Source of the DNA: a virus
DNA length: 64,000 nucleotides
Reading direction: 5' to 3' (one strand)
IMG/VR virus record: IMGVR_UViG_3300032326_001134
Span: 32,001 to 96,000 of that record
Part shown: positions 22,814 to 54,818 of the stretch, one piece after another
Layout of the letters: each line of letters begins with the position of its first letter
Position numbering within the stretch: the first letter of the stretch is position 1
Program-made: the position numbers and the translations under genes
The notes under the pieces: generated by a model
What the model was told of the DNA's origin: nothing
Seen by the model: only the letters and a program-made list of their open reading frames with translations
Databases searched by the model: none

Positions 22814-23628
22814 CAAGCAATATTGGAATTTGTATATATTCATATCAAAACAAAAAGCTATTAGACTTAATAGAAGAAATTAAAGAAAAGTCTAGTAAAA
22901 AAAATATGTTGTATTTTTATGTCATAGATCAAAATAATTTGGACAGAACAAGAGGGCTCGACGATCCAGAATTTTATCATTCCATTTCATATAACTATGT
23001 AAAATGGGATTCAATTAAAAGCCCAATTGAATATAAACAACAAGCATTAAACATTTTAAATAAAACATATTATATGCAGGTTGAAGACAACTTAAGCTTA
23101 ATACAAAATTGGGACGAATATGCAATAGAATTCATATCAAACAATAAAAACTCAATTTTATCTGGAAATTCTACCGTCTCGCTAGATAATAAAAACTTGT
23201 TTCAGATAGCAGCTACAAGAACGCCATCAAAACATTTTAATGAGATAAAGTATATAGATAGAAATTTTTTATTTGGTCTTACTGAAGATTTTAAAAAGAT
23301 AGATTACCCTAAATATTTAAAGTACAACGGGGAAGAAGAATCTATTTCAATAGATATGCTAAACAGGGGAATAAAGATTTATAACTTCCCAGATGAATAT
23401 TTATCAATACATAAAGTTGATATAGAAAAAGAATATGTTCCCTTTTCTTTAAACCATAATTATAATAAATTTGTTAGCCTGTATAAGGATCAAGTTAAAA
23501 AGCATTTTGGTTTAAAAATAGAGACATTGCCGTTTGAAGATAGCGATGTCCTGTACGACCCATTGCAGTCTCAAACTGACAAAATTGGTGGGTTAAGATA
23601 TATTAATAAAGTTAAGGAGCTTAGATAA
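22810..23628 (+). CDS. Divergent Gnt1/GlcNAc-transferase-like glycosyltransferase (possibly inactive)
   Basis: Aligns by eye to the 53907 ORF: I.I.S(Y/F)Q..L..I.KSS, YYxQ....xxWD, GEE...S....G; DSH motif replaced by EDN; GTGA overlap start. Confidence 0.55.
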   Translation: MTSNIGICIYSYQNKKLLDLIEEIKEKSSKKNMLYFYVIDQNNLDRTRGLDDPEFYHSISYNYVKWDSIKSPIEYKQQALNILNKTYYMQVEDNLSLIQNWDEYAIEFISNNKNSILSGNSTVSLDNKNLFQIAATRTPSKHFNEIKYIDRNFLFGLTEDFKKIDYPKYLKYNGEEESISIDMLNRGIKIYNFPDEYLSIHKVDIEKEYVPFSLNHNYNKFVSLYKDQVKKHFGLKIETLPFEDSDVLYDPLQSQTDKIGGLRYINKVKELR

Positions 23629-24170
23629 TGTTAATAAAAATAGTAGAAGACTTTATAACAGAAGAAGATGCAAATACTTTAATTAATGAAATGAAAAACC
23701 CGTCAGAAAGAAATGAGTATCCTGTATATTACAAAGACCGAAATGGTGGAACCGCATTCCCTTATAATAAAAAAGTTATGTCATTGTTAAAAAAATATGC
23801 AATACATTCAAATAAAATACAAAAAGAATTTTTTGGATTAGAAAAAGATGTTATTGTTACAAAAGCTTTTGGTTCGTTTTGGATGCCTGGAACAAGCGGA
23901 GCCCCACACATAGATGCAATAGAAAAAGAGCCATTTATTGAATACAGTACAGTAATCTATTTAAATGACGAATATGAGGGTGGAGAAATTTATTTTCCAA
24001 GACAATCTTTCGAATATAGTCCTAAAAAATACTCAGCAGTATTTTTTCCAGGAAATAGCATTGACTATGTCCACGGAGTAAAAGAAATAACAAGCGGTAG
24101 TAGATTTACAGCTCTCTATATGCAGTCTACAAAAAAAGACTTTATTGATCCAGATTTTGAAGGGTGCTAG
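23628..24170 (+). CDS. Prolyl-4-hydroxylase-like 2OG-Fe(II) oxygenase
   Basis: HID, STVIYLNDEYEGGEIYF, HGV, GSRF. Confidence 0.9.
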   Translation: MLIKIVEDFITEEDANTLINEMKNPSERNEYPVYYKDRNGGTAFPYNKKVMSLLKKYAIHSNKIQKEFFGLEKDVIVTKAFGSFWMPGTSGAPHIDAIEKEPFIEYSTVIYLNDEYEGGEIYFPRQSFEYSPKKYSAVFFPGNSIDYVHGVKEITSGSRFTALYMQSTKKDFIDPDFEGC

Positions 24171-24171
24171 A

Positions 24172-24825
24172 ATGAATTATAAAGAGTTATCACTAGGGGC
24201 AGTATATTATAAAAATATTATAGAAGACCCACAGAGTGTCATCAATAAAATAGAAGAACTAGAGCAAAAAAGAAACGAGTCAGAAGGATACAGGTCGGAG
24301 TTTGTAAAGCCATGGCAAGCATGGGACTATAATAACGGAAATAAAGAAAAAACTATTTTTTGCTGGCAAAAGTTTTTACCAAAGCCTGAAGACATAAAGG
24401 TGGATGACTTGTTCTATAAAGAGCAGTTTGAGATATCTTCAATTCTTTTTGATGGACTAGAAAAAGGACTTAAGCATTATTTTTCTTTATACCCATATGC
24501 AGAAAAAAATATTAAATCTAGAGAAAAAACAATGCATCTTTTAAAATATAAAGAAAGCGGTTTCCTACCAGCGCACTCAGATCATGGAATAAGTAGCAGG
24601 GTATTGTCTGCTCTTTTATATTTAAATGATGATTACGAAGGAGGGAACATAAGATTCCCTCACGCAGAAATAAACATTAAGCCAGAAGCTGGAAGTTTAT
24701 TATTTTTTCCTTCAAACTTTGTTTATGTACATGAAGTAGATGCAGTAACAAGTGGAACAAGATACTCTTTGCCTAACTGGTATCATAATAGAAAAAACGC
24801 ATATTACTCAGATGGAACAGAATAA
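24172..24825 (+). CDS. Prolyl-4-hydroxylase-like 2OG-Fe(II) oxygenase
   Basis: HSD, SALLYLNDDYEGGNIRF, FFPSNFVYVHEV, GTRYS; start moved to ATG 24172. Confidence 0.9.
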   Translation: MNYKELSLGAVYYKNIIEDPQSVINKIEELEQKRNESEGYRSEFVKPWQAWDYNNGNKEKTIFCWQKFLPKPEDIKVDDLFYKEQFEISSILFDGLEKGLKHYFSLYPYAEKNIKSREKTMHLLKYKESGFLPAHSDHGISSRVLSALLYLNDDYEGGNIRFPHAEINIKPEAGSLLFFPSNFVYVHEVDAVTSGTRYSLPNWYHNRKNAYYSDGTE

Positions 24826-25523
24826 TGTTTATCGTTACAGGATCTAGTAGTGGAATAGGAAATGCAATTGTAAACAGGCTTTTAAAAAACGGACATTCTG
24901 TTTCAGGAATTTCAAGAAACATTCCAAAAAATGGTTCTGGATTTAAAACATATCAAGCAGACGTGTCTGATAAAAAATCAATTATAGAAATTGCAGAAGA
25001 CCTAAAATCACAAAACATAACAGTAAGTGGCTTAATAAATTGTGCTGGCTTATCACAAGATTTTTTTATTGCTGATTGGACAAAAATGCCAGCGGAAGAA
25101 ATTCAATCAATTTTTGGAACAAATATTATTGGAATAATAAACACATGCCAGTCATTTGTGCCATTAATGAATAGTAAGGTTCACACTCCAATTATAAACA
25201 TTAGCAGTCTCGCAGCTCATGCAAATTCAGATATTTCAGTCTATGCATCTAGTAAGTATGCTGTTAATGGATTTACTAGATCTTTATCTAGAGTTTTAAG
25301 AGAAACATCAATAAGGCCAAATTGTATAGCTCCAGGAATGATTAAAACAGAAATGACAAAGCACCTACCAGAAGAAATATTTAATAGAATTTTGTTTTTA
25401 TCTGGTCAAACCCTTAGCAGCAAAACATTTACGACAGAAGATATATGCGATGTGGTAGACATGTTAATTGATGAAAAATCAAACAGCTTAACTGGACAGA
25501 CATTCCACATAGGCGGATACTAA
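24825..25523 (+). CDS. Short-chain dehydrogenase/reductase (FabG-like)
   Basis: TGSSSGIG, INCAG, NISS, YASSK, IAPGMIKTEM, LTGQTFHIGG. Confidence 0.93.
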   Translation: MFIVTGSSSGIGNAIVNRLLKNGHSVSGISRNIPKNGSGFKTYQADVSDKKSIIEIAEDLKSQNITVSGLINCAGLSQDFFIADWTKMPAEEIQSIFGTNIIGIINTCQSFVPLMNSKVHTPIINISSLAAHANSDISVYASSKYAVNGFTRSLSRVLRETSIRPNCIAPGMIKTEMTKHLPEEIFNRILFLSGQTLSSKTFTTEDICDVVDMLIDEKSNSLTGQTFHIGGY

Positions 25524-25547
25524 ACCGCTAAATGGTATAATTTTTAA

Positions 25548-27278
25548 ATGTCATACTATTATAAAGTGCTTAAGGATAGCCCGATTGGGTTTTGGAAGCT
25601 AGACGATAGCTCGACCACGGCAACAGATTATTCTGGTTGTCAAAACAATGGATCTTATTTTGGACCACAGGATAAAAAAAATCCAATTGTTAGCGGAAGC
25701 GACTATTCATTAAGAATAACATCTACGTCTAGCGTAACCTTTCCTTTAATTAAAAATTATTATGGACAAACAGCAAAGGGCGGATTTGCAAATATTAATG
25801 ACGGGGACAACGATTTTTCAATAGAGTGCTGGATATTCCCAAGAGTAGAAACAGACAGCCTTACTACAATTGTTGGAGATAAAGAAAACAATATAGGAAT
25901 TTTTTGGGATAACGGCAATATATATTTTGGGCTGGACACAGACTACCTAGAGTATTCAGTTCCAAATTTTAATAAATCTTTACATGTAGTTTGCACCTAC
26001 AGTGTAAATAAAGCATTTATATATGTAGACGGAGTTCTTTGTGTTAGCAAAACAATATCATCTAATCCATTTACAAACACAGAGATTTCCTTAAAATCTG
26101 GTCCAACGGAAAACTTATTAGATTCATTTTTGATTAATAACGTTGCCGTATACAGATACGGATTACCTGAAAAACAAATATACTCCCACTTTGCAGACAA
26201 CAATAAAGTCATGCCGATACAGATAGCATACCCAGAAAATGGAGAAATATTTTATATATATGACAATACAATGAGAAACTCTTTTTCATTTTCATATCCT
26301 AAAGACAAATCCTGGGAAGACTTTTTAAATCAAGATTTAAATTTAAATAGACTTGAAAACTACATAGAGATATCAAAAACAGACAGCCAGGAAACAAAAG
26401 AAGTTATTTTAAACGATATAATTTCTATGCCATCTGGTATCACAATGGATTCTTCAAAAATATTTTGGAGCGGAGAAAATGGAATTAGGGTGTATACCAG
26501 TTTAGATGATATAGACTATCTAGAATGTAAAAATGGAGAGCCAATACCTCAATACAAGTACTCAGAATTTGATGACCAAAAATTCTTTTACATAAGAATT
26601 GTAATGGCCTCTGAAGACTCATCAAAATATTTGCCCAAGCTGTACAGCCTAGAAGTTAATTTCTATAATGCTCAGATATTATATTCTAAAAATGGTGGAT
26701 CATATATATCAAAAATTGAAAATTTAGATGCAAGCTTTGGCGAAGATGCGTATCCTATTTTAAGCAATAATGGTTTAAATGGAATACTAGTCGATTCTGA
26801 TTCTGGGTTCAATCTAAATACATCAAAATCTATATCAACATTAGAATTTTTTTATACACCAAATACAATTTCTAGCGGAACCATGCTTTCAGCCGACAGC
26901 ACAGAAATTAGCTGGTCAAACAATGGCAGTATAAATAAAAATAACATATCCAGCCTTTATGTAAATGGGATTAATAAGACATCTGAAACACAGGTATCTA
27001 ATATCTTTAAGCCAAAGGACCTACACCATGTAGTCGTAACCCTTACGTCTCCTGTAACCGAAGAAATTATTTTTAATTATAAACAGGCGGGATCTGAAAA
27101 AGCCCTATACCAGTATATAACAATATATGAGTATGAGATGGATGTAAATATAATTCAAAACCATTATGATCTATATATGGAGAAATCAAAATATCAGTCC
27201 AGCGGATCGACACTCAAGGTGTCAGAAAACAACGTAAGCTTATATAATAATGACTGGATAGTGCTCCAAAACTCATAA
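25548..27278 (+). CDS. LamG/ConA-like domain virion protein
   Basis: DSPIGFWKLDD, FSIECWI, HVVCTY..IYVDG, VAVY. Confidence 0.75.
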   Translation: MSYYYKVLKDSPIGFWKLDDSSTTATDYSGCQNNGSYFGPQDKKNPIVSGSDYSLRITSTSSVTFPLIKNYYGQTAKGGFANINDGDNDFSIECWIFPRVETDSLTTIVGDKENNIGIFWDNGNIYFGLDTDYLEYSVPNFNKSLHVVCTYSVNKAFIYVDGVLCVSKTISSNPFTNTEISLKSGPTENLLDSFLINNVAVYRYGLPEKQIYSHFADNNKVMPIQIAYPENGEIFYIYDNTMRNSFSFSYPKDKSWEDFLNQDLNLNRLENYIEISKTDSQETKEVILNDIISMPSGITMDSSKIFWSGENGIRVYTSLDDIDYLECKNGEPIPQYKYSEFDDQKFFYIRIVMASEDSSKYLPKLYSLEVNFYNAQILYSKNGGSYISKIENLDASFGEDAYPILSNNGLNGILVDSDSGFNLNTSKSISTLEFFYTPNTISSGTMLSADSTEISWSNNGSINKNNISSLYVNGINKTSETQVSNIFKPKDLHHVVVTLTSPVTEEIIFNYKQAGSEKALYQYITIYEYEMDVNIIQNHYDLYMEKSKYQSSGSTLKVSENNVSLYNNDWIVLQNS

Positions 27279-27341
27279 ATATGAACATTGTCCTGACAAA
27301 ATATGGACATTAACTAAAAAGAATGGTAAAATTGATACACA

Positions 27342-27677
27342 ATGGACATTAAAAGAATAAATCAATCAGTTATTGAAGAGACCACCCTTGGTATATATGT
27401 TTGGGAAATGCCAGATGGAAGATGGATTGGCGACGACGATGGAAACTTTTTATCTATTACTGCAAAAAAGGGAAACAGATCAAAGATAGCTCTTTTGGCG
27501 GACGCAGTCAGAGCACACGGCATATACGAAGGCCAGCCAAAGTTTTTATCAGGACGTAGAAAAATTGATGACGAAGAGTTTCAGCATCAAAAGCAAAGAT
27601 TAGAATGGGGCCTAACACCAGACCCACTGGATATCGGAGTTTATAAAGACTCTTTGAAAAATGGAGGTATGCGATAA
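27342..27677 (+). CDS. Hypothetical protein preceding portal
   Basis: 111-aa ORF abutting portal, with its own promoter. Confidence 0.75.
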   Translation: MDIKRINQSVIEETTLGIYVWEMPDGRWIGDDDGNFLSITAKKGNRSKIALLADAVRAHGIYEGQPKFLSGRRKIDDEEFQHQKQRLEWGLTPDPLDIGVYKDSLKNGGMR

Positions 27678-29261
27678 ATGGAATTCATTAATGATGACGA
27701 AGTCAGCGCAGAAACTATTGACATATCAAACTCAGCAGATTGGTTTAAGTTTAATAATAAAGAAGTGGTTGTAGACACAGACCCATTTAACATAGAGGCT
27801 CAAGAGCTAAAAAAGGTGAACGGACTTAGTACAACATTCCGTAGAAAAGTTTCAAGAGATATCCAGAAGAGACTTGTGGGTCAAGAAGGAACAGGAACTC
27901 AGCAAAATTTATTGCAGCAAGCAGTCACTGGCTACGCAATGTTCGACCTTGTTCAGCCAGTTTATAATTTAGAATATTTATCAAAGATCTATGAAATATC
28001 CCCATACAACTACGCAGCAATTAATGCAAAGGTTGCCAACATAGTTGGGCTGGGATATTCTTTTGTAGAGACAAAAAAAGCAAACGATGCTTTAGATAGC
28101 ATAACTGACCCTAAGCAGTTAGAACGTGCTCGTAAAAAACTAAATAAGCTAAGACAAGATTTAGACAATTGGCTTGAGGAAACAAACGAAGAAGAAACTT
28201 TTACAGAAACATTAATCAAAGCATATACAGATTTAGAGGCAACTGGAAATGCCTATATTGAAATAGGAAGAACGGTTGCTGGAAACATTGGATACATAGG
28301 TCATATTCCATCTAAGACAATGCGTGTTCGTAGACTACGTGACGGATTTATTCAATTGCTATATGGCAAGGCTGTTTTCTTTAGAAACTTTGGAGATCAA
28401 GAAACACTAAATCCAATAGATGGTGGCCTAGAAAGACCAAATGAAATTATTCATTTAAAGAAGTATACTCCAATGAATAACTATTATGGAATACCAGACA
28501 TAATTGCAGCACAAACGGCAATGGCTGGAAATGAATTTTCTGGAAAATATAACCTAGATTACTTTGAAAATAAAGCAGTTCCAAGATATATAATTACAGT
28601 TAAAGGCGCAAAGCTATCACCAGAGTCAGAAAGAAAACTTCTTGAGTTTTTCCAAGTTGGTTTAAAGGGTAAAAATCACAGATCCCTATACGTCCCGCTA
28701 CCAGCCGATACATCAGACTCTAAAGTTGAATTTAAAATGGAGCCAATTGAAGCTGGAAGTCAAGAAGGCTCATTTGAAAAATATCGCAAATCAAATAGAG
28801 ATGAAATACTATTGGCACACAGAGTTCCAATTAATAAAATTGGAGTTCCAGAAGGAGTAAGCCTAGCATCTGCTAGAGATGCAGATAAAACATTTAAAGA
28901 GCAGGTGTGCGGTCCCGCCCAAGATATTTTAGAGAAAAAAATCAATAGAATTATATCAGAAAAAACAGATGCTCTAGTTCTTGAGTTTAATGAGTTGACT
29001 TTGACTGACGAAGACACGCAGTCTAAAATTGACGAAAGATATTTAAGAATGCAGGTAATTACTCCTAATGAAGTAAGAATTAGAAAAGGAATGATTCCTA
29101 TGGATGGTGGAGACGAAGTGGTTGATTTACAAGCACAGGCAGCAGAAATTAAAGCCCAAGCCTTAAATACTAGAAATAGAACCCAAGAAAGATCTGCAAA
29201 TTCACCAGATAGTTCTGGGGAGGCCAGAAATCCAAAAGGTGAAGGTAGAGTCACTGCTTAA
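27678..29261 (+). CDS. Portal protein
   Basis: LEATGNAYIE, EIIHLK..YYGIP, YFENKAVP, AHRVP, ITPNEVR..GM.P..GGD. Confidence 0.92.
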   Translation: MEFINDDEVSAETIDISNSADWFKFNNKEVVVDTDPFNIEAQELKKVNGLSTTFRRKVSRDIQKRLVGQEGTGTQQNLLQQAVTGYAMFDLVQPVYNLEYLSKIYEISPYNYAAINAKVANIVGLGYSFVETKKANDALDSITDPKQLERARKKLNKLRQDLDNWLEETNEEETFTETLIKAYTDLEATGNAYIEIGRTVAGNIGYIGHIPSKTMRVRRLRDGFIQLLYGKAVFFRNFGDQETLNPIDGGLERPNEIIHLKKYTPMNNYYGIPDIIAAQTAMAGNEFSGKYNLDYFENKAVPRYIITVKGAKLSPESERKLLEFFQVGLKGKNHRSLYVPLPADTSDSKVEFKMEPIEAGSQEGSFEKYRKSNRDEILLAHRVPINKIGVPEGVSLASARDADKTFKEQVCGPAQDILEKKINRIISEKTDALVLEFNELTLTDEDTQSKIDERYLRMQVITPNEVRIRKGMIPMDGGDEVVDLQAQAAEIKAQALNTRNRTQERSANSPDSSGEARNPKGEGRVTA

Positions 29262-29280
29262 TTATTAGGCAACCAGTTAT

Positions 29281-29309
29281 TTGCCTTATATACAATACCG
29301 TTATAAAAT
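29281..29309 (+). promoter_or_regulatory. Sigma-A-type promoter (leaderless prohead protease mRNA)
   Basis: TTGCCT-17-TAAAAT, ATG 7 nt downstream. Confidence 0.55.
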
Positions 29310-29316
29310 TAGGCAT

Positions 29317-30627
29317 ATGAATATTGAAAAATCACACTGGTCTGCTAACGGCGAAGATATCAGCCTGTCTGTTCCTTTTACAAAAGTTAATCGTGAAAAA
29401 AGAACTGTATCTGGTTTTGCAACATTAGACAACCTAGATCAAACAGGAGACGTAGTAACAGCAGAAGCAAGTCTTGGAGCATTTGAAAATTTCCGTGGAA
29501 ACATTCGTGAAATGCATGGATCAAATGCAGTTGGCAAAATGGTTTCATTTAGACCAGAAACATATTATGATGCAAAAAGCGGAGAATTCTACAATGGAGT
29601 TTATGTAGATGCATACATATCAAAGGGATCACAAGATACCTGGGAAAAAGTTTTAGACGGAACACTAACTGGATTTTCAATTGGCGGAAAAATTATTGAT
29701 TCAGAAAATGAAGTAAACAAGTCCACAGGACAACCAGTTCGCTTTATTAAACAATACGCACTTATGGAATTGTCAGTCGTTGATTCACCAGCGAATGAAC
29801 TTTGCAATATTTTGTCTATTCAAAAAATGAATGGTCAATTAATGTTTAAAGGAATAGCTGCAGAAACAGTAACAGAGAATATTTTTTACTGTGAAGAAAG
29901 CGACTCTGTTTTTATGTCAACAGAGCAATCTTACGACTCACCAGCAACTGGTAAACCAGCGGTTTTAATTGGTTGGGTAGAAAGTAAAGATATAAACAAA
30001 GCGAAAGAAATAGAAAAGATTCTTGCTTCATTTAAGAAGTCAAGATTTACGTTGCCTGAAATACAAACAATTGCAAAACAGGCAAACGCAGAAGGAGGTA
30101 ATGAAGTGTCAGAAAACACAGAAACAGTAGCAGTCGAAGAGACTGCTCCAGTAGAAGTTTCAGCCCCTGCAGAAGATGTAGTGGTTGAAGAGACTGTTAC
30201 AGAAGATGTAGTAGCAGATGCTTCTGCCGAAACCGTTGAAAAAGCATCAGACGTCTCAGAGGTCGTTGTTGATGAACCTGATTTTGCAAAAATGTTAGGT
30301 GACTTAAAGGGCTTTTTCTCAGATACTCTAAGCAAGGCTTCAGAAGCAAATGCTGCACAGGTTTCAACTATTAAAGAAACAGTTGAATCTTTTAGCAAGA
30401 GCGTTGAAACTCAAATCTCAGAGTTGGCAGACAAACATACAGAACTCAGCAAAACTGTTGAGAGCATCAAGAACACGATTGATACTGTAGAAAAGCGTGT
30501 CGACGCAGTAGAATCAGAGACTGCAATCAAGAAGTCCTCAGACCTTGGCGGGTCACAGGATGTAGTAGTACAAAAATCAAAATGGAACGGTTCTTTCCTC
30601 GGTTCCGTAAACGAACTATTTAAGTAA
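29317..30627 (+). CDS. HK97-type prohead protease fused to scaffold domain
   Basis: VSGFA..D..GD, REMH, TGFSIGG, ELSVVDSPAN; acidic/coiled-coil C-half; start moved to ATG 29317. Confidence 0.88.
   Translation: MNIEKSHWSANGEDISLSVPFTKVNREKRTVSGFATLDNLDQTGDVVTAEASLGAFENFRGNIREMHGSNAVGKMVSFRPETYYDAKSGEFYNGVYVDAYISKGSQDTWEKVLDGTLTGFSIGGKIIDSENEVNKSTGQPVRFIKQYALMELSVVDSPANELCNILSIQKMNGQLMFKGIAAETVTENIFYCEESDSVFMSTEQSYDSPATGKPAVLIGWVESKDINKAKEIEKILASFKKSRFTLPEIQTIAKQANAEGGNEVSENTETVAVEETAPVEVSAPAEDVVVEETVTEDVVADASAETVEKASDVSEVVVDEPDFAKMLGDLKGFFSDTLSKASEANAAQVSTIKETVESFSKSVETQISELADKHTELSKTVESIKNTIDTVEKRVDAVESETAIKKSSDLGGSQDVVVQKSKWNGSFLGSVNELFK
30106..30627 (+). CDS. Nested in-frame scaffolding protein (internal start)
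   Basis: AAGGAGGT at 30092-30099, in-frame GTG at 30106. Confidence 0.55.
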   Translation: MSENTETVAVEETAPVEVSAPAEDVVVEETVTEDVVADASAETVEKASDVSEVVVDEPDFAKMLGDLKGFFSDTLSKASEANAAQVSTIKETVESFSKSVETQISELADKHTELSKTVESIKNTIDTVEKRVDAVESETAIKKSSDLGGSQDVVVQKSKWNGSFLGSVNELFK

Positions 30628-30647
30628 AGGGTAGGTGAAATAATATA

Positions 30648-31700: not shown

Positions 31701-31716
31701 TAAGAATTAACCAATT

Positions 31717-31746
31717 AAAGGCCCCCAATTAATTTTGGGGGCTTTT
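31717..31746 (+). terminator. Rho-independent terminator after capsid gene
   Basis: GCCCCCAA-ttaatt-TTGGGGGC-TTTT. Confidence 0.85.
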
Positions 31747-31797
31747 CATTTGAATTTAGTAATGCTATAATTAAACAACCTAGACTAAGGAGAATAC

Positions 31798-32193: not shown

Positions 32194-32207
32194 TTTAAAC
32201 CTTTAAT

Positions 32208-34910: not shown

Positions 34911-34911
34911 A

Positions 34912-43213: not shown

Positions 43214-43214
43214 A

Positions 43215-46923: not shown

Positions 46924-46943
46924 TTAAATGGTATAATAAAAAT

Positions 46944-47741
46944 ATGGCTAAATCAAAAAGAATAGATGTCAAAGATCTAACAAGAGGAGCTATAATTGCT
47001 CTCCCAATGGATCACCCAGATGCAATACATTTGCACCCAAATGATTATATTGCAATTAAAGCTGGGTCTATCGACTATTCAAGATATTTAAACTCAAATT
47101 TATATGCTACTGGAGGAGGATCAAATCTTTCCGAGCCAGCTAAAGAGCTAGAGCCAGATGTCCCAGTAGTTGGAGAATCGTTAGACATTCCATCATTGAG
47201 CGATATTGAAAGCATAGTTTATGAGCCGTACTACGACCCAGTACTAAAGGCTCAAAAGGTAAAAGCATTAATTAAAATTAGAAACTCCAGCGATAACCCA
47301 GCTAACATTGCTGGAATAGATTCAAGAATTTTTAATCAAACATCACAGGTCCAGGTTATATCAAATCAAAATTTGTCTTCTATTAGTTTTGTAGAGCCAA
47401 CGCCAACAAAGCCTACTGTTGTGTTTAAAAGAGATGGAAGTGCAGTATCGTGGGGATGGAACAATACTTCTGGATTTGGGACATACTCATCTGTTTCGTA
47501 CGAGTGGATTGTTAGCACCACAGACTCACCAACTGCTCCTGCTTTAAGTAGCGGTACAATTACATATCCATCTTCTGGAAACTATAAAATTGGAACTAGT
47601 AATTATATGAGACAATATAGAGTTAGCTCAAGAAATGGAGATACCGCATCTTCTTCTTCACCTAGGTGGCTAAGAGTAAGAACGGTGGTAGTTGGTGTAA
47701 ACGGACAAACATACAGGTCTGCGTACTCAACACCAATTTAA
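46944..47741 (+). CDS. Minor tail protein
   Basis: C-terminal Fn3-like beta domain; position. Confidence 0.55.
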   Translation: MAKSKRIDVKDLTRGAIIALPMDHPDAIHLHPNDYIAIKAGSIDYSRYLNSNLYATGGGSNLSEPAKELEPDVPVVGESLDIPSLSDIESIVYEPYYDPVLKAQKVKALIKIRNSSDNPANIAGIDSRIFNQTSQVQVISNQNLSSISFVEPTPTKPTVVFKRDGSAVSWGWNNTSGFGTYSSVSYEWIVSTTDSPTAPALSSGTITYPSSGNYKIGTSNYMRQYRVSSRNGDTASSSSPRWLRVRTVVVGVNGQTYRSAYSTPI

Positions 47742-47752
47742 TAGGAGACAAA

Positions 47753-48823
47753 ATGATAACAAAATTTGGAAAAAGGTTTTTAACAAATCAAATAGCTGGA
47801 AACGTGCCTAATTTAAATAAAGACATTGCTATTGGAGTAGACTACTCCGCAGAATCAGAGGATAACACCAGACTTGGATTTGAGTTTTATAGAGTCCCAG
47901 TTTTATTTGGAACAACTGATATACAAACAGAGGATGACTCCACAACCTACTCAGTTATATTTAAAACAACAATTCCTCAAGATGTTGAAGGAATAATCAA
48001 TGAAATTGGGCTATATCCATCCACAAGATCTTCTATCAATAACTTTGACAGTAAGTTTATAACAGATTTTGAGTCGTATTTAGACTGGACAGACACAGAT
48101 GGATTTAAGCCAGACTACCTTACATCTATTTCAAGAATAGGAAATACATTATTGCTTATGCAATCATTAGAGGGAAACTCAAATGAATACATATACAATA
48201 TTGAAAATTTAGATTTATCTGGATACAGTGTTAACGACAGTCTTAAATTAGCCTATTACAAACAAGATGAAAATCTAAATTCAATTAAAATTAAATTTTA
48301 CCACACAGACGATAGCTGGTTTTTAAAAACAATTACACCAGAATCTGGCACGGGTCATAAAATTACAGCCGACATACCCATGTCAGAAGTATTTAATGGA
48401 GCTACCTCACCAGGACCAGACAAATCAAATATAAATAAAATAGGAATTATAATTGAACCAATAGAGTCTGAAATATCTTATGTTGGATTTGATGGATTAA
48501 GAATTAATGACGAAGATACATTTGATCCAATTTTTGGATTAATTAGCAGGTCATTAGTAATTACAAATACTGCAATATCTGGAACCTCTGAAGAAAACAC
48601 CATAGTTGTAGATTCCGTAAGCAATTTGTTTGTTGGACAACCAGTGTCTGGAACTGGGGTAGCAGCAGGTTCGGAGATAACCAACATATCTGGATATACA
48701 GTAACTCTTTCAAAAAATAATATAGCAACAGTTTCTGGTTCTGGTAACTTCTATGGAATACAAAAATTAGCTGGAAGACCACTAGATCTTGAATATAGAT
48801 TAGATTTGGAATGGAATATATAA
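47753..48823 (+). CDS. Minor tail protein
   Basis: MITKFGKR..L.FEFYRVP..NEIGLYP; AGGAG RBS supports ATG 47753. Confidence 0.65.
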   Translation: MITKFGKRFLTNQIAGNVPNLNKDIAIGVDYSAESEDNTRLGFEFYRVPVLFGTTDIQTEDDSTTYSVIFKTTIPQDVEGIINEIGLYPSTRSSINNFDSKFITDFESYLDWTDTDGFKPDYLTSISRIGNTLLLMQSLEGNSNEYIYNIENLDLSGYSVNDSLKLAYYKQDENLNSIKIKFYHTDDSWFLKTITPESGTGHKITADIPMSEVFNGATSPGPDKSNINKIGIIIEPIESEISYVGFDGLRINDEDTFDPIFGLISRSLVITNTAISGTSEENTIVVDSVSNLFVGQPVSGTGVAAGSEITNISGYTVTLSKNNIATVSGSGNFYGIQKLAGRPLDLEYRLDLEWNI

Positions 48824-50881
48824 ATGGCTTATCAGGATCTGTTAATAGATAATTCCGTTGCTGTAGAGGGCGGAAACTATTTCATTATAACCGTAACAGA
48901 TCTAAATATAAATGAAACATATCCAATTCAGTTTAGATATAAATATCAAGACGGAACTTTTGGGTTATGGTCCGCATCTAGATTATTAGTTACACCAGGA
49001 GAAACTTTACCAGGAAGCCCAAGTTTATCTGTAACTGATGTCGTCGGCGATGATGGATTTATTAAAATTACCTGGAATGGTAATGATAAATCTGGTAGGC
49101 CAATAACAAACATAGACAGAATAGATATTTTTATTGATGGCGCACCATTTGATGGAACAAAAGCAGCGGGAAGTTTTAAAACAGCTGGGACACAAACCAT
49201 AGCTGCACCAGCAGGACAATATGCAGTAGCGTTATACGCTATTTCAAGTTATGGAAGCAAGTCAGCAGTTAGCGATGCACAAGATGTTATAGTTACAAAA
49301 TCTGGACAATCAATTTTAAATCCAGAAGATCCTTACGCTCCAACAGTTACATCTGGCCTGGCTTCTGTAATAGTTGGATGGAACGGAAAGAAGTCAGATG
49401 GGGATGGCGGATTTGAAGACTTTACTTCTGGAAGCTTTGCTGGAGCAAAAGTATTTATTGGCGAATCCCCAGATTTTATTCCAAGTGATAATAATTGGGT
49501 GCACACATTAAATTTTGCTAATGGTTATAATGAAGTTTCAATAGGTGTCGGAACAATAATAAATAAATCTTTAGGATTAACTTTAGGATACAACACCCCA
49601 TACTATGTAAAAATTGACACGATAAACGCAAACAAGGTAGCAAACGGTCAGCCTATATCTGCTGAAGGAAACCCAATTACTGTAGCAAAACTGCCAGCTA
49701 GTGAAATTACAACAGGATTTTTAGAAGCAGATGCTTATATTAAAGCTGGAGCAAGCAGTGGGGCAAGGGTTGAAATTTCTGGGTCAGCTAGCCCATTTGT
49801 AATTTATGGAACAGATGGAACGACAAAGCTTCTTGAGTTTATTGGAGGATCTACAGGAACATTAGCAATAAATGGATCTGGAACATTTACTGGAAATTTA
49901 GCTATCGGATCTGGAAATGAAATATTTAAAGCAGATCCTTCAGTAGGAATATGGCTTGGAAATGCAAATTTTGCAAGTTCAACATTTAGTGTAAGTAGAA
50001 GCGGATATCTTAAAGCCACAGTTGGAGAAATTGCTGGATGGACAATTGCTAGCACATATTTACAAAATGCAACAGGGACCATTAAGCTAAACGGTGGATA
50101 CGACCCTGCTTTATTCATTGGAAGTGCATCTGGCGCACACATAAGATTGGCACCAGACTCTATAGCCCATTATAATGGGGGATCTGCAACTGGTAAATTT
50201 ACATTAAATACTTCCACTGGAAATTTAACAATGAATGGTGGAACGTTAACAAATGGTGAAGTTAATTCATCAACAATAACTGGTACAACAATTAACGTAA
50301 GTGGAAGACAAATTGGAACTGGAACTAATATTGATTACTCAGAGTCCTCAGATACTTCTACAAAAATTAATTTTACTGAAGCAAATTACAGCATAATTCC
50401 AGGTTACGATACTCTGTCAGAAGAAGTTTCTACAGGATATTATGATCCTATTAATGAAACTTGGGTAAGCGGAGTTACAACTACTACAAATACGGTAAGG
50501 ACTCTTAAAATTACAGACTCAATTGAAAAGGGTGGAGTCCCATCATCTGGATATTATTCTGAATTATGGTTGCAAACTGGAACTTCTTCTGGCGACGCAA
50601 CAATATACGGAAACTATCCTGGAGGATATATAAGCTTTGAAGTTAGATCAAATAGTACCGAAAGGGCTTTTTATATAAATGGTTACGGCGAGAACTGGAC
50701 AAATAGACATGAGACAACAAGCTTCTCAGATCAGCCAGCAGTTCTACAGGCAGACGCAAATGGAAAAATAACTAGAGGAAGAGCCTTTTTTTCTTCAGGT
50801 GCTAGCTCTGCAACAATTTTAGGTGTGAACTGGCAAAATGTTGGACAAAATGGCGATATTGTATTTAGTACAAATAACTAG
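48824..50881 (+). CDS. Tail fibre/host-specificity protein
   Basis: Fn3-like N-half, SGARVEI, GEIAGWTI, Gly/Thr-rich shaft, ends GQNGDIVF. Confidence 0.7.
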   Translation: MAYQDLLIDNSVAVEGGNYFIITVTDLNINETYPIQFRYKYQDGTFGLWSASRLLVTPGETLPGSPSLSVTDVVGDDGFIKITWNGNDKSGRPITNIDRIDIFIDGAPFDGTKAAGSFKTAGTQTIAAPAGQYAVALYAISSYGSKSAVSDAQDVIVTKSGQSILNPEDPYAPTVTSGLASVIVGWNGKKSDGDGGFEDFTSGSFAGAKVFIGESPDFIPSDNNWVHTLNFANGYNEVSIGVGTIINKSLGLTLGYNTPYYVKIDTINANKVANGQPISAEGNPITVAKLPASEITTGFLEADAYIKAGASSGARVEISGSASPFVIYGTDGTTKLLEFIGGSTGTLAINGSGTFTGNLAIGSGNEIFKADPSVGIWLGNANFASSTFSVSRSGYLKATVGEIAGWTIASTYLQNATGTIKLNGGYDPALFIGSASGAHIRLAPDSIAHYNGGSATGKFTLNTSTGNLTMNGGTLTNGEVNSSTITGTTINVSGRQIGTGTNIDYSESSDTSTKINFTEANYSIIPGYDTLSEEVSTGYYDPINETWVSGVTTTTNTVRTLKITDSIEKGGVPSSGYYSELWLQTGTSSGDATIYGNYPGGYISFEVRSNSTERAFYINGYGENWTNRHETTSFSDQPAVLQADANGKITRGRAFFSSGASSATILGVNWQNVGQNGDIVFSTNN

Positions 50882-50890
50882 GGAGACAAA

Positions 50891-53269
50891 ATGCCAGTAG
50901 CATTTGTAAAAAGATCTGTCGATGGAGTTTCTAAATGGGTACAGATTAAAAAAATGTATTTAAAAAAGAATGGAAGCTGGACAGCCCTTGCTACTGCATA
51001 TCTAAAAAAGAATGGAGCTTGGAGTAAAATTTTTGCAGGATCTGGTCCTTCTTTAAATTCATCTCCTGTGATAACCCCACGATTAGGTGGAAAACTTTTT
51101 GACACCTATGACTCAACAAATGGAAGCTGGGACAATGCAACTACATATACAAGACAGTGGAGCAGGTCAGACAATGAAACTGGACCATTTGAAAATATTA
51201 CAAATGCAACTTCTACTTCATATAAAACAGTTTCTGGCGATGATGACAAATGGATTACTGTAACAGTAAGGGCATCTGATGGAACTAATTTTAACGAAGC
51301 TGCTGCAAAAGCAGTAAAGATAACAAAATATAAACCAGTTGCGTTAACCCTACCAGCAATTAGTGGTACATTGACAGAAGATTCAACAGTAACAGCCTTA
51401 ACGACACTTGGAACATATTGGAAAAATACCACAGATAATACAGGAGACACAGCACCAGATGATTTTACTTATAGGTGGTACTGGGGAGATACCACTGGAG
51501 ATGATCTTGGATATAGTTCTACATACACTATTCAAAGCACAGACGTTGGTCATACACTAAGGGTATCTGTAACTGCTACAAATACAGGTGGAGAAACAAC
51601 ATCAACTAGCAATGAGACATCCACAATCGGTCAGCCAATAGGAATATCGGATGTTGATTTTGAGGATGAAAACGGAGATAGTGGATTTAACAACAGAGAC
51701 AATCTAGTAACAGCCACATATTTAACATTAAAATTTAAAGTTTCTGGAGTAAATACTTCTACAACGTTTAGAGTAAGATACAGGGTATTAAATAATCAAA
51801 CTGGAGCTTACTGGAGTCCAGAGAGTGAGACAGCAACAACAGCATCTGCAGCATGGCTTGTGTACGAATCAGATTACTATAATGTTGGAAACATAAGCAA
51901 TGTTACAATATCTGGGGGAGATGCTTTTATATCAGATACATTTGTGATACCAGAGATATTTAATGGATCAACATTTAGTGGTGGTATTGCAAGATGGACC
52001 TGGGAGTATGATATAAGTGCAGTAATAGGTGGAAATAGATATTACTGGGTTCCTGGAGATACAGTTTCAAGAAGCTTTACATATGACTGGTGGGATATTG
52101 ATCCAACAACTAATCCAACGATAAGCCCTACATCAGCAACCAGGACCACATCGACTTCAGTTACATTTAGTGGAACACTCGCAAGCTACCCAGCATCACT
52201 TAATGCATATACACGTGCTTATAAAATGGTTTATGGTGACGGTACAGATAGCGGATGGTTTTATCCAAACTATGGTGCCTCAAATACAACATACAGTTTT
52301 ACAAAAACATATTCAACTGAAGGAACATACTATCCATATATAACTGCAATACCATACTATGCAGCAGCTTCTTCAACTATAACTGTATTCGATCCAAAAA
52401 CAAGAACACTTTCTTTTGATGCAAACGGTGGAACAGGGGCCCCAGCTTCACAAACTGGAACAGATAATGGATCGGGCGCAGTAATTACTATTACCGCTAC
52501 AAAACCTACAAGAACTGGGTATACATTTAGTAAGTGGAACACAAATTCTTCTGGAATTGGCACAGACTATAATCCATCTGGATCAATAACTCTGACATCA
52601 AATGTTACATTATATGCAGTGTGGACAGAAAATACAGCTGTTCTTTATACTGTTACATTTAGCAGCAATGGCGCTGGTGGAAGTCCATCGGTAGCTTCTG
52701 TCAAGCAAACATCGGAAGGTGGCACAGTTACATTGGCATCAAAAGGAACACTGGCATCTTCTGGCAATATTTTTGGGGGTTGGAGAACTGAGTCTTCTGG
52801 TGGAACCGTTTATGGATTTGGAGCTACTTTTACTCCTACTGAAAATATAACTCTATATGCTTACTATGGAGCAATCCCTACTTGTGCAGCACCCGCATGG
52901 ACTCTTGCAAATAACTTTAGAAGATCAAACACTGACAGTCAAATAATATGGTTTACGGATTTTCCTACACCATCTGGTGCCTATACAGCAATTGAAAGCA
53001 TGCAATTTCAAATAAGTACAACTGCAAGTACTTCGGGTATATTAATAGGAGATTCACCAATTGCCACCAGAGCGTATCCTGGAGCATTTACTTATCCATA
53101 CTCTGGAGCAGGAACAGTTTGGGGATTTAAATGCGGTAGAGACAGATCCTCAGTTGGTCAAGTTGCTGACGTTGCGTTTAATACAGCAAATAGATTTGCT
53201 AGAGCTAGAGTTAGAATGACAGGAATAGACGGACTTAGCTATCCAGGAACATACACGGGTTGGGTATAA
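50891..53269 (+). CDS. Tail-tip adhesin with Ig-like, PKD-like and InlB B-repeat (Flg_new)-like domains
   Basis: YTRQW..I.NAT..SY...DD; LSFDANGGTGAP..PTRTGYTFSKWNT..TLYAVW; N-terminal YLKKNGxW repeats. Confidence 0.75.
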   Translation: MPVAFVKRSVDGVSKWVQIKKMYLKKNGSWTALATAYLKKNGAWSKIFAGSGPSLNSSPVITPRLGGKLFDTYDSTNGSWDNATTYTRQWSRSDNETGPFENITNATSTSYKTVSGDDDKWITVTVRASDGTNFNEAAAKAVKITKYKPVALTLPAISGTLTEDSTVTALTTLGTYWKNTTDNTGDTAPDDFTYRWYWGDTTGDDLGYSSTYTIQSTDVGHTLRVSVTATNTGGETTSTSNETSTIGQPIGISDVDFEDENGDSGFNNRDNLVTATYLTLKFKVSGVNTSTTFRVRYRVLNNQTGAYWSPESETATTASAAWLVYESDYYNVGNISNVTISGGDAFISDTFVIPEIFNGSTFSGGIARWTWEYDISAVIGGNRYYWVPGDTVSRSFTYDWWDIDPTTNPTISPTSATRTTSTSVTFSGTLASYPASLNAYTRAYKMVYGDGTDSGWFYPNYGASNTTYSFTKTYSTEGTYYPYITAIPYYAAASSTITVFDPKTRTLSFDANGGTGAPASQTGTDNGSGAVITITATKPTRTGYTFSKWNTNSSGIGTDYNPSGSITLTSNVTLYAVWTENTAVLYTVTFSSNGAGGSPSVASVKQTSEGGTVTLASKGTLASSGNIFGGWRTESSGGTVYGFGATFTPTENITLYAYYGAIPTCAAPAWTLANNFRRSNTDSQIIWFTDFPTPSGAYTAIESMQFQISTTASTSGILIGDSPIATRAYPGAFTYPYSGAGTVWGFKCGRDRSSVGQVADVAFNTANRFARARVRMTGIDGLSYPGTYTGWV

Positions 53270-53430
53270 TGGATAACGATAAAGAAAACAAGATATACTA
53301 TATTTCATGTAGGATTAAATCCCTAAATGGAAAAATTAATTTAATTGAAACTGATGAAGCGTCTGGGGAGTCTTTAGAAGACCTACAGGCACAAATACAA
53401 GCATTGACTAATTTGATTGAAATGCTATAA
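53269..53430 (+). CDS. Small coiled-coil protein (not in ORF track)
   Basis: TAATG overlap; MDNDKENKIYYISCRIKSLNG...LEDLQAQIQALTNLIEML. Confidence 0.6.
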   Translation: MDNDKENKIYYISCRIKSLNGKINLIETDEASGESLEDLQAQIQALTNLIEML

Positions 53431-53447
53431 TATGAAAGGAGGACAAA

Positions 53448-53681
53448 ATGACTATTAATTTAACAAAAGAAGAAAAGACTCAAATCATATCTTCGCATAT
53501 TAAAAATCTAAATTATACAAAATACAATTTAGAACTTGATATTATTCAAGAAAATGCTAGAGTTACTCCATCTTTAAGTGCAATAAATAATTCTAATTCA
53601 CAAATGGATGAAGTAAATAATCAGATATTAGCTCTTGAAGCAGAGCTAACAGCAGTTAATTCCACAACAGAAGAGGCGTAA
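53448..53681 (+). CDS. Small coiled-coil protein
   Basis: AAGGAGG RBS; heptad-like C-terminus. Confidence 0.75.
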   Translation: MTINLTKEEKTQIISSHIKNLNYTKYNLELDIIQENARVTPSLSAINNSNSQMDEVNNQILALEAELTAVNSTTEEA

Positions 53682-53682
53682 A

Positions 53683-53862
53683 TTGGACAAAACACAACTA
53701 GTAATAACAGCACTACAACAGCGCATAGGAGAACTTGTATCTAATTATGAAACTCAGATTGCAGTATTACGTGCAGAAATTACTCAACTTATTGATGAAA
53801 AGCAGGAGCATGGAAAAGCTATTCAAGAGTACTCAGACTCACTTAGTAACCTCTCTATCTAA
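53683..53862 (+). CDS. Small coiled-coil protein (not in ORF track)
   Basis: TTG start with GAGG; MDKTQLVITALQQRIGELVSNYETQIAVLRAEIT... Confidence 0.65.
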   Translation: MDKTQLVITALQQRIGELVSNYETQIAVLRAEITQLIDEKQEHGKAIQEYSDSLSNLSI

Positions 53863-53906
53863 CCCTACTTCAGTAATTACGTTTAAGTCTAATAAGGCAA
53901 ACTAAA

Positions 53907-54818
53907 TTGCCTAGTATTTTTGTACAGATATCATCATTTCAAGATTATGAGCTACCACTCACAATACTAGACTGTATTGAAAAATCTTCAGGAAGTAACG
54001 AGATACACTTTGGTGTATTTAACTGCTACTTTAAAGATGATAAAATTAATCTCCCAGATGTTCCTAATATTAAATTTGAAGAGGCTGTAGCGCCAGACAA
54101 AATTGGAGTGGGAATAGGAAGATTTATAGCAAACTCTTTTTATGATGGAGAAGACTACTATTTACAGATTGATTCTCATACAAGATTTGTTAAGGACTGG
54201 GACAGTAATTTTATTTCAGACTATCTATATTACAAAAATGCCAACCTTAATCCAATTCTAACGACCTACCCAGGAGTATATCTTTATGGAGATAACGGCA
54301 TTGAGTATTTAGAAAATAATAGTACTCCGTATATAGGATTTTCAAATACAGACTGGGCACAAATGGAATTTTTTAAAAATAAAATATTGCCACAGGTAGC
54401 TATGACTAATAAAGAAAATAATATATTTACAAAAGGTGTATCTGGTGGACAGATATTTGGATCAGGAGATTTGCATAAAATTGAACCAAATAAAAAAATA
54501 CTTCATTGGGGAGAAGAGACCTTGTACTCTATTAGATTTTATACTCATGGATACGATCTATTGATTCCTAGGTCAAATAACCTATATCATCTATACTATA
54601 ATATAGATAGCGAAGAACTAAGTAAAAGAAAATTGCCTATAAAGTATTTTAAAGAAGAGACTAGCAGTCTACTAACAGAATCAATGTCAGAGCTATCAAG
54701 AATAATTGACAACAATGTTATAGGATATCAGGCTCTAGGAACAAAAAGAACCTTGTCAGATTACGAAAAATATGCTAAAGTAAACTTTAAAGTAGGAGTA
54801 ATAGAAGGAGAAGAATGA
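53907..54818 (+). CDS. Gnt1-like (Skp1-hydroxyproline GlcNAc-transferase family, GT60-like) glycosyltransferase
   Basis: SIFVQISSFQD.EL..TI, GVGIGR....Y.GEDYYLQIDSHTRF.KDWD, ILTTYP, GEE...S.R.YTHGYD, YHLY. Confidence 0.85.
   Translation: MPSIFVQISSFQDYELPLTILDCIEKSSGSNEIHFGVFNCYFKDDKINLPDVPNIKFEEAVAPDKIGVGIGRFIANSFYDGEDYYLQIDSHTRFVKDWDSNFISDYLYYKNANLNPILTTYPGVYLYGDNGIEYLENNSTPYIGFSNTDWAQMEFFKNKILPQVAMTNKENNIFTKGVSGGQIFGSGDLHKIEPNKKILHWGEETLYSIRFYTHGYDLLIPRSNNLYHLYYNIDSEELSKRKLPIKYFKEETSSLLTESMSELSRIIDNNVIGYQALGTKRTLSDYEKYAKVNFKVGVIEGEE

Follow-up and report, generated by a model that had tools for sequence, protein, structure and literature searches.

A hydroxylase–glycosyltransferase operon co-inherited with proline-repeat proteins in an uncultured siphovirus-type phage

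Introduction

Genes resembling prolyl 4-hydroxylases (P4H) are among the most abundant 'auxiliary' genes of aquatic viromes, yet what viruses use them for 'remains cryptic', according to a review (PMC9301287). What such enzymes do for a phage is the question raised by a 64,000-nucleotide stretch of DNA, hereafter the window, which comprises bases 32001–96000 of a 115-kb linear IMG/VR virus record (IMGVR_UViG_3300032326_001134; completeness ~92% according to CheckV). Two P4H-like genes lie next to each other in it, at 23628 and 24172; a glycosyltransferase gene precedes them at 22810, and a second one is found at 53907. An initial annotation of the window had read these genes as a pair of the Skp1 type, in which the hydroxylases would provide hydroxyproline (Hyp) for the Gnt1-like transferase at 53907, with Phe-Thr-Pro (FTP) repeats as the substrate.

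We find that the partner of the hydroxylases is the transferase at 22810, which represents a family that we call GT60b, and not the enzyme at 53907. New from this window are GT60b as an obligate hydroxylase partner, a six-gene core and candidate FGFTP/Hint substrates. Probably, the appendages of the phage tail are hydroxylated and sugar-coated by the phage's own enzymes, which has so far not been demonstrated for a bacterial virus; a literature search found no publication on a phage P4H–GT60 system or on phage hydroxyproline glycosylation. An operon of hydroxylases and a transferase that is co-inherited with Pro-repeat fibre proteins offers a concrete, testable answer to the use of viral P4H.

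Results

A translationally coupled operon with a conserved six-gene core

The genes around the two oxygenases, which use 2-oxoglutarate (2OG), are the following (aa, amino acids; ORF, open reading frame).

18800–19447 and 19431–19994, plus strand: two unannotated ORFs, no Pfam match
19976–20707, plus strand: DUF6065-like protein a, core member (phrog_7084, E 3e-43; PF19541, E 1.6e-3), in 24/25 GT60b clusters
20704–21435, plus strand: unannotated 243-aa protein, core member, no Pfam or PHROG match, in 24/25 GT60b clusters
21410–22168, plus strand: DUF6065-like protein b, core member (phrog_7084, E 6e-38), in 24/25 GT60b clusters
22169–22813, plus strand: unannotated 214-aa ORF, no family match, in 12/25 GT60b clusters
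22810–23628, plus strand: GT60b (P0002), predicted GT-A glycosyltransferase of a sister family of GT60, GTG start (hhalign to GT60)
23628–24170, plus strand: OxyA (P0003), short 2OG-Fe(II) oxygenase, collagen-type prolyl-hydroxylase-like (phrog_61; HxD...H...R; Foldseek)
24172–24825, plus strand: OxyB (P0004/P0173), 2OG-Fe(II) oxygenase, PHD-type prolyl-hydroxylase-like (PF13640; AlphaFold/Foldseek)
24825–25523, plus strand: short-chain dehydrogenase/reductase (SDR), accessory and not core (PF00106, E 4e-38), in only 7/25 GT60b clusters

The gene junctions show translational coupling. The GT60b gene starts with GTGA at 22810, overlapping the TGA stop of 22169–22813; the ATG of OxyA overlaps the GT60b stop (TAATG at 23628, with AAGGAG upstream), and OxyA and OxyB are separated by a 1-nucleotide spacer at 24172. 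All the genes named in the initial annotation, a GT4 glycosyltransferase and a sulfotransferase being treated separately below, lie on the plus strand, with starts at the annotated positions or within a few codons of them.

To compare this arrangement across viruses, we used a first set of 38 viral loci with GT60 relatives and a later set of 192 viral loci. Anchors (GT60 or GT60b) were grouped at 70% identity into 87 lineage clusters, 25 for GT60b and 62 for canonical GT60, and expected adjacency counts were obtained by within-locus permutation. Six genes of the window (19976, 20704, 21410, GT60b, OxyA and OxyB) are common to 24–25 of the 25 GT60b clusters, where the order DUF6065–GT60b–OxyA–OxyB is constant. 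An oxygenase lies within 3 kb of GT60b in every cluster and within 100 bp in 18 of them, against 4.5 expected (p<0.0002). GT60b would be a previously unrecognised transferase family and is the obligate partner of the hydroxylases.

Among the other members of the operon, DUF6065-like protein b is 29% identical to its paralogue a (E 2e-29), and DUF6065 has no informative relative in the PDB or the Atlas. The 243-aa core protein shows no relation to the neighbouring genes by BLAST. The two upstream ORFs occur in 8/25 and 10/25 GT60b clusters, respectively, and in 0/62 GT60 clusters. In four GT60b lineages (L115, L126, L136 and L139) a canonical GT60 lies 1.5–6 kb downstream of the GT60b-Oxy-Oxy block, so both transferase families can share one cassette.

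Pairing of a prolyl-hydroxylase-like enzyme with one of the GT60 type, as proposed for the window, is recurrent and non-random in phages and in SAR86, with GT60b as the partner in our phage. GT60 adjoins one or more oxygenases in no fewer than seven lineages of the first 38 viral loci, and both gene orders are represented. In SAR86 a PF13640 oxygenase stands head-to-head with a PF11397 GT60, ~40 bp apart, in 11–12 loci; this is an independent cellular version of the pairing. The SAR86 loci are L050–L054, L056, L057 and L059–L062 (e.g., L052:7340-7957 on the minus strand and L052:8001-8990), and the pair lies there among the housekeeping genes UvrD, RpiR and MazG, with no obvious substrate or repeat protein nearby.

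GT60b is a sister family of GT60

The gene at 22810 had been described as a divergent copy of the transferase at 53907 next to the P4H genes. Its relation to GT60 and its position are borne out; what it represents is a conserved sister family that falls under the Pfam cut-off. P0002 scores 18.3 bits against PF11397 (cut-off 21), and among its 46 relatives PF11397 is found on only two and PF00535 (GT2) on two. Nevertheless, the GT60b profile aligns with the GT60 profile at 97.3% probability (hhalign, E 2e-11, 192 columns), and both have in common Q...(+11)W-D, G-E-E and a late His. Where GT60 has Q-I-D-S-H, P0002 reads Q-V-E-D-N: the D-x-H motif is replaced by E-D-N, and across the family the consensus reads [GSE]-D-x, its Asp being moved by one position. 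Given this clear homology without D-x-H, GT60b is a sister family rather than a member of GT60. We considered whether P0002 might be a decayed pseudogene copy and rejected this, since it retains all 14 invariant columns, that is, every invariant residue of the 46-member family.

OxyA and OxyB resemble prolyl hydroxylases

The description of 23628 and 24172 as P4H-like is upheld: both encode intact 2OG oxygenases whose top structural matches are prolyl hydroxylases. OxyA has no Pfam match; it matches phrog_61 ('2OG-Fe(II) oxygenase', E 1.5e-15), is found by a profile of the locus oxygenases at E 8e-33, and its residues H94, D96, H149 and R159 are invariant among orthologues. OxyB matches PF13640 (E 1.6e-16, 61.5 bits against a threshold of 27) and has the motif H-S-D...H...R, with H135, D137 and H187 invariant and R197 almost invariant (217-aa numbering). 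The ATG of OxyB at 24172 matches the start used by its 217-aa homologues, and the TTG at 24145 given by the ORF finder lies upstream. The two proteins are 47% identical over the catalytic core and, by these alignments, each carries the iron triad and the basic residue for 2OG binding.

Sequence matches of both oxygenases in the PDB are weak (E ~1e-4) and all are protein hydroxylases. We therefore compared AlphaFold models, built from orthologue alignments, with known structures by Foldseek (predicted local distance difference test of 95.9 for OxyA and 91.9 for OxyB). The top matches of OxyA are the B. anthracis P4H, vCPH of chlorovirus PBCV-1 (5c5t, template modelling (TM) score 0.69/0.69) and human P3H1 (TM 0.72–0.74). 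Those of OxyB are PHD2 (TM ~0.62), the Chlamydomonas P4H (2jig, 3gze), Dictyostelium PhyA (6t8m, TM 0.58/0.61) and P. putida PPHD. For both models the top matches comprise only peptidyl-prolyl hydroxylases (TM 0.6–0.74, E ~1e-9), followed by lysyl ones such as LH3. Given the moderate TM-scores and the LH3 match, the models establish a peptidyl hydroxylase, most like the prolyl hydroxylases. Proline would be the likely substrate on circumstantial grounds, namely the invariant Pro of the co-inherited arrays and the link between Phe/Pro repeats and oxygenases described below.

Phage 2OG oxygenases paired with glycosyltransferases are known from DNA hypermodification, and this precedent raises the possibility that the substrate is not a protein at all: a DNA base, oxidised in the TET/JBP manner and then glycosylated, a nucleotide sugar or a small molecule. 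Three distant P0004 homologues have a precomputed match to PF12851 (TET_JBP) beside PF13640, and an SDR gene follows the operon in the window. PF12851 is matched by neither window oxygenase at E<=0.01, the top structural matches are all peptidyl hydroxylases, GT60 is a family of polypeptide transferases, the SDR is present in only 7/25 lineages, and the genes belong to the structural and not to the replication module. We consider a non-protein substrate very improbable, and TET/JBP-type DNA modification is largely rejected on the Pfam result and the structural matches.

In the oxygenase tree, 5/7 of the phage oxygenases that abut a transferase fall into a weakly supported OxyA-like group (Shimodaira–Hasegawa-like approximate likelihood-ratio test, 84). 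The genome of the window encodes four oxygenases. Related phages G001–G004 (contigs of L009, L034, L020 and L037) have 8–10 PF13640 paralogues each, mostly in a single 6–13 kb island adjoining fibre and repeat-protein genes.

Proline-repeat proteins are co-inherited with the operon

Two proteins encoded upstream of the operon are candidate substrates.

14157–15032, plus strand: PASTA-(F[GS]FTP)x4-Hint-like protein (P0005), candidate substrate (PF03793 PASTA, E 3e-8)
17501–18787, plus strand: FN3-(F[GS]F[TA]P)x6-Hint-like (Ser-type) protein (P0006), candidate substrate (PF00041 fn3, E 9e-10)

The FTP repeats noted initially correspond to an array at 14454–14513 in P0005, which ends 2 residues before the Hint Cys, and one of 6 copies at 18116–18205 in P0006. 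The Hint assignment in P0005 comes from Hom_end_hint (E 3e-6, below the cut-off), the sole Pfam Hint match in the two proteins. In 9 lineage clusters, with GT60b identity down to 35–46%, orthologues of P0006 carrying 5–12 pentads are encoded 4–5 kb upstream of GT60b. Across 130 pentads, F1 and F3 are present in all and P5 in 129; position 4 is Thr or Ser in 118 (91%) and Ala or Val in 11, and in first pentads Ala or Val is frequent at this position, with the Pro unchanged. These patterns indicate that selection acts on the FGFTP repeat at the level of the peptide, and that repeat and cassette are inherited together. Pro would be the most conserved candidate acceptor, and pentad composition slightly favours it over Thr/Ser.

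The arrays comprise 4–12 copies, and every one of them stops 1–3 residues before the Hint-type nucleophile, which is Cys in P0005 and Ser both in P0006 and in the orthologues of P0006, such that self-cleavage would leave the array as a C-terminal tail.

Pro/Thr/Phe-rich low-complexity runs occur in only ~1.3% of the ORFs of these loci and cluster near the transferases. They are of two classes, mucin-like Thr/Pro linkers (TTTTTTPAP, (TP)n) and Phe/Pro repeats ((P)FFP, FGFTP). A canonical GT60 is no more than 2.5 kb away from 31 of 43 unique Thr/Pro segments, and by cluster such linkers are found within this distance in 16/62, compared to 9 expected (p ~0.001). An oxygenase is present within 8 kb of 11/13 Phe/Pro repeats, compared to 16/43 Thr/Pro segments (Fisher p 0.004); one of the two Phe/Pro exceptions (L020) is an edge effect, with the oxygenase island ~1 kb from the FFP gene. 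Some oxygenases begin 6 bp downstream of a repeat gene. Very long pure (P)FFP arrays are seen in fibre-associated proteins (L020:18580-19953, ~130 residues; L036:6193-6756; L156:3566-6481; L168:18526-19539), and (P)FFP arrays often end in a small Cys-rich knot, not a Hint domain.

These data bear on whether hydroxylation and glycosylation are coupled. The two could be independent, with GT60b and GT60 both placing sugar on Thr/Ser and Hyp (or 3-Hyp) only stiffening or stabilising the repeat. We regard this as possible, if on balance unlikely: Thr/Ser at position 4 in 118/130 pentads speaks for it, and the frequent Ala/Val in the first pentad beside an invariant Pro speaks against it. Moreover, pure (P)FFP arrays without Thr/Ser adjoin GT60 and oxygenases (L036, L020), so that Hyp would be the sole acceptor within those repeats. 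The proximity of GT60b to oxygenases in 25/25 clusters (<=3 kb, usually with overlapping codons) is also tighter than two independent decorations would predict.

A further alternative is that the enzymes modify host proteins during infection, for takeover or as auxiliary metabolism, e.g., by hydroxylating EF-Tu or a ribosomal protein and glycosylating some target in the host. The bacterial P4H/PPHD structures matched by the models (5v7y, 4iw3) do hydroxylate EF-Tu, homologues bear the JGI name 'Rps23 Pro-64 dihydroxylase Tpa1-like', PHROGs places these oxygenases in the category 'moron, auxiliary metabolic gene', and the SAR86 pair has its housekeeping neighbourhood with no repeat protein near. 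The automatic names are COG labels and not tests, however, and the cassette sits within the fibre/morphogenesis region, flanked by the Mtd_N fibre genes on one side and LamG/portal on the other, is inherited together with fibre-associated proteins that bear repeats, and has an enzyme type that correlates with the repeat type. A host target appears improbable.

The canonical GT60 at 53907 lies apart from the oxygenases

The second transferase follows a gene for a repeat-bearing adhesin.

50891–53269, plus strand: tail-tip adhesin with Flg_new repeats (PF09479, E 6e-25), candidate P0001 substrate
53907–54818, plus strand: canonical GT60 (P0001), 303 aa, TTG start (PF11397, D-S-H motif)

The gene at 53907 had been described as an intact Gnt1-like gene with QIDSH, just after the tail-tip adhesin genes, and both points stand. 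P0001 passes the Pfam gathering threshold of PF11397 'GlcNAc' (E 2.6e-35, 123 bits, cut-off 21), so its GT60 membership is upheld, and PF11397 is present in all 125 P0001 relatives among the matches listed. The TTG start yields an N-terminus that matches the family consensus. Q-I-D-S-H occupies residues 87–91, and Q87, D89, H91 and H228 are invariant across 30 relatives. A D-x-H followed by a later His is the metal-binding motif in GT27/GT60, as known from polypeptide N-acetylgalactosaminyltransferase (ppGalNAc-T) structures. P0001 has both elements, and these residues would be expected to bind the metal. A sequence search found no solved GT60 structure.

Hyp-specific Gnt1 and mucin-type enzymes specific for Thr are both members of GT60 (PMC8724618, PMC6939170), so we use 'Gnt1-like' without implying a hydroxyproline acceptor. 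The Thr-specific polypeptide alpha-N-acetylglucosaminyl (pp-alpha-GlcNAc) transferases act on Thr-rich, Pro-flanked peptides (PMC8724618, PMC3769586), the acceptor peptide of the T. cruzi enzyme being KPPTTTTTTTTKPP (PMC3769586).

As for P0001 itself, its supposed partnership with the hydroxylases is not supported. In a tree of 71 GT60 sequences it falls inside a 9-member clade (support 99), none of whose members abuts an oxygenase. A gene for the small, Cys-rich DUF6171 lies within 1.5 kb of GT60 in 7/8 of the other members, and two members have Thr/Pro linkers. The closest relative (L001, 77% identity) sits 3' of a tail-tip adhesin with a poly-Thr/TPAP linker; in L001/L002 this linker of the adhesin homologue is 1.3 kb upstream of GT60. 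Such indirect evidence from gene neighbourhoods argues against membership of P0001 in the Hyp-specific Gnt1 subgroup. Oxygenase adjacency is scattered across the tree (5 changes), and therefore no clean 'Hyp-type' or 'Thr-type' subfamily can be defined. An S/T/P scan placed the most S/T/P-rich segment of the window in the adhesin (aa 404–423, ~nucleotides 52100–52159).

For independent decoration of Thr/Ser, the canonical enzymes add further points in favour: Thr-specific pp-alpha-GlcNAc transferases exist within GT60 (PMC8724618, PMC3769586), canonical GT60 stands beside Thr/Pro linkers with no oxygenase in most lineages, and the P0001 clade never abuts one.

Elsewhere, DUF6171 often precedes canonical GT60 (22/62 clusters); in a smaller number of clusters (8/62) a radical SAM/SPASM enzyme does. 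A trio of radical SAM/SPASM (PF04055 and PF13186), a ~76-aa Cys-rich DUF6171 and GT60 is seen in L013–L026, L007–9 and L033 (e.g., L025:679-1683, L015:4477-4707) and looks like a peptide-maturation set. Both DUF6171 and radical SAM/SPASM are absent from the window's genome, so the trio does not apply here. Fusions of a GT60 domain with a C-terminal SAM (S-adenosylmethionine) methyltransferase domain occur in L041:7965-9563 and L048:7977-9542 (Magnetococcales, Oxalobacteraceae), and L048 has TPAPTE-type repeats in the ORFs directly upstream of the fusion.

Discussion

Two putative tailoring modules for tail appendages

Our proposal is that two modules for tailoring the proteins of tail appendages are encoded in the window. 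The first (module 1, ~14157–25523) would consist of the fibre-associated array proteins and the coupled operon downstream of them. The oxygenases would most likely turn the invariant Pro of each pentad into hydroxyproline, GT60b would then move a sugar from a UDP-sugar onto the Hyp hydroxyl, which would give the appendage a stiff, glycosylated tail. Module 2 would rest on the canonical GT60 at 53907, for which an activity independent of hydroxyproline is most likely: it would be expected to place N-acetylhexosamine (HexNAc) on Thr/Ser of the linker of the adhesin 50891–53269, as mucin-type GT60 enzymes of protists do. Established here are the identity of the enzymes, their folds and complete catalytic residues, the structure of the operon and its co-inheritance with the repeat proteins; we infer what the substrate is, which residue is hydroxylated, which sugar is attached and by what linkage, and any role of DUF6065 or the Hint domain. 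As a whole, the two-module proposal is our tentative preference, held at somewhat less than even confidence.

Several observations weigh against it. The repeat protein lies 4–5 kb from the enzymes and is not adjacent to them, and only 9/25 GT60b clusters have it within the flank available. With Thr/Ser at position 4 in 91% of pentads, direct Thr/Ser glycosylation fits equally well; the sequence is compatible with either Hyp or its Thr/Ser neighbour as the carrier of the sugar. GT60b lacks the D-x-H of GT60 and is under the Pfam cut-off, such that neither donor nor acceptor can be inferred from family membership. Concerning module 2, the adhesin linker of the window has only ~20 residues and is far weaker than those of the relatives, and DUF6171, the partner of most P0001-clade members, was not found by a search of the window's genome.

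The adjacency statistics call for similar caution. The lineage clusters are phylogenetically non-independent, and the oxygenase tree is deep and poorly supported, with no single orthologue group associated with the transferases. Canonical GT60 abuts an oxygenase in just 9/62 clusters (4.3 expected, p ~0.012), a modest enrichment, and, as up to 10 oxygenase paralogues occur in islands, part of the adjacency could reflect island structure. These islands weaken the adjacency argument for canonical GT60, not for GT60b.

A broader reading, which we find doubtful, is that phages and some marine bacteria (SAR86) own a prokaryotic hydroxyproline O-glycosylation system. It would combine PHD-type and collagen-type prolyl hydroxylases with a GT60-sister family and DUF6065 partners; the C-terminal (FGFTP)n tails exposed by Hint domains would give the virion a brush of glycopeptides resembling extensins or mucins, and the system may be the evolutionary source of the protist PhyA/Gnt1 pair.

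If the two-module proposal is true, protein glycosylation that is linked to hydroxyproline, or coupled to a hydroxylase, would be on record for a bacterial virus for the first time; a new glycosyltransferase family would be established, and DUF6065 and DUF6171 would gain a context. There would also be consequences for how abundant uncultured phages adsorb, for their host range and for their stability in the environment. The gene pairs of SAR86 and phages matter for the question of how the eukaryotic Skp1 oxygen-sensing pathway arose.

Comparison with known systems

In the Skp1 pathway of Dictyostelium and Toxoplasma, PhyA acts first and is followed by Gnt1 (CAZy GT60). The window likewise pairs a PHD-type prolyl hydroxylase with a GT60-type transferase, PhyA itself (6t8m) is among the structural matches of OxyB, and P0001 is a bona fide PF11397 protein with D-x-H. 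Skp1, however, is a subunit of the eukaryotic SCF complex, so the likeness is only an analogy of chemistry. The candidate phage substrates are tandem pentapeptide arrays in virion-associated proteins and not a single-site regulatory target; the hydroxylase-coupled transferase is GT60b, which lacks D-x-H; the hydroxylases number two, as against one in the Skp1 pathway, and conserved extra partners (DUF6065 and others) are present. Gnt1 of the Skp1 pathway requires prior hydroxylation (PMC6939170). No extenders of the PgtA/AgtA type (AgtA/Gat1) were found, and the GT4 and sulfotransferase proposed for this role are present in 0/87 clusters.

The mucin-type pp-alpha-GlcNAc transferases of Trypanosoma cruzi and Dictyostelium belong to the same Pfam/CAZy family as P0001, and their acceptors, Thr runs flanked by Pro (KPPTTTTTTTTKPP, PMC3769586), closely resemble the PAPTTTTTTPAP linkers beside phage GT60. 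The protist enzymes are Golgi-resident, whereas a phage-encoded enzyme would be cytoplasmic; the adhesin linker of the window is short and weak, and the frequent association of phage enzymes with DUF6171, and sometimes with radical SAM/SPASM, has no protist counterpart.

Among viral systems, vCPH of PBCV-1 is a virus-encoded P4H with virus-encoded Pro-repeat proteins as substrates, and is one of the best matches of OxyA. PBCV-1 is a eukaryotic virus, however, a coupled glycosyltransferase for Hyp is not described, and its repeats are of the PAPK type, not FGFTP. The nearest phage precedent comes from mycobacteriophages, whose own glycosyltransferases reportedly decorate the phage's structural proteins (Freeman et al. 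2023, as cited in PMC12801897). Those phages differ in using other transferase families with no hydroxylase step, in having capsid and tail tube C-termini as targets and in infecting Actinobacteria.

Finally, in the extensins and arabinogalactan proteins that plants and green algae make, P4H action followed by Hyp glycosylation in tandem Pro-rich repeats gives rod-like glycoproteins (PMC8724618). The Chlamydomonas P4H (2jig, 3gze) is among the matches of OxyB; that system differs in its arabinosyl- and galactosyltransferases, its secretory pathway and its Ser-Pro(n) motifs.

Other genes of the window

The left arm of the window carries auxiliary genes (P450, sulfotransferase, SLT, GT4 and a class II ribonucleotide reductase), including those considered as glycan extenders.

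1975–3063, minus strand: sulfotransferase (Pfam)
4022–5011: GT4 (Pfam)

Neither these two nor the P450 co-occurs with GT60 or GT60b in any of the 87 lineage clusters, and because of this the extender role is unsupported and all three were rejected as extenders. The P450 is a full-length cytochrome P450 (PF00067, E 3e-70) that overlaps the sulfotransferase-like gene (560–3063, minus strand), a pair unusual for a phage. The class II ribonucleotide reductase ORF (5095–7029) has short partial Pfam matches only (barrel domain residues 144–216) and may be divergent or interrupted.

Genes for a morphogenesis module of siphovirus type (portal, protease, capsid, head-tail adaptor, Ig-domain tail protein, tail-tip proteins), with a tape measure protein of 2,095 aa, lie on the plus strand. 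Megablast found no DNA-level relatives among GenBank phages, and distant GT60 proteins occur there in two jumbo Stenotrophomonas phages only. Fibre-like proteins lie 5' of the morphogenesis module; three of them, within 10871–17489, begin with an Mtd_N (major tropism determinant N-terminal) domain.

13159–14226, plus strand: Mtd_N-type fibre protein with phage tail-fibre repeats (PF18454, E 1.5e-14)
15129–17489, plus strand: second Mtd_N-type fibre protein (PF18454, E 1.4e-12)

Homologues of the first adjoin GT60 in 8 and GT60b in 11 lineage clusters, and those of the second are found in 11 clusters of each kind. The first protein contains the fibre repeat 'LFSGSYxDLTxKP' three times.

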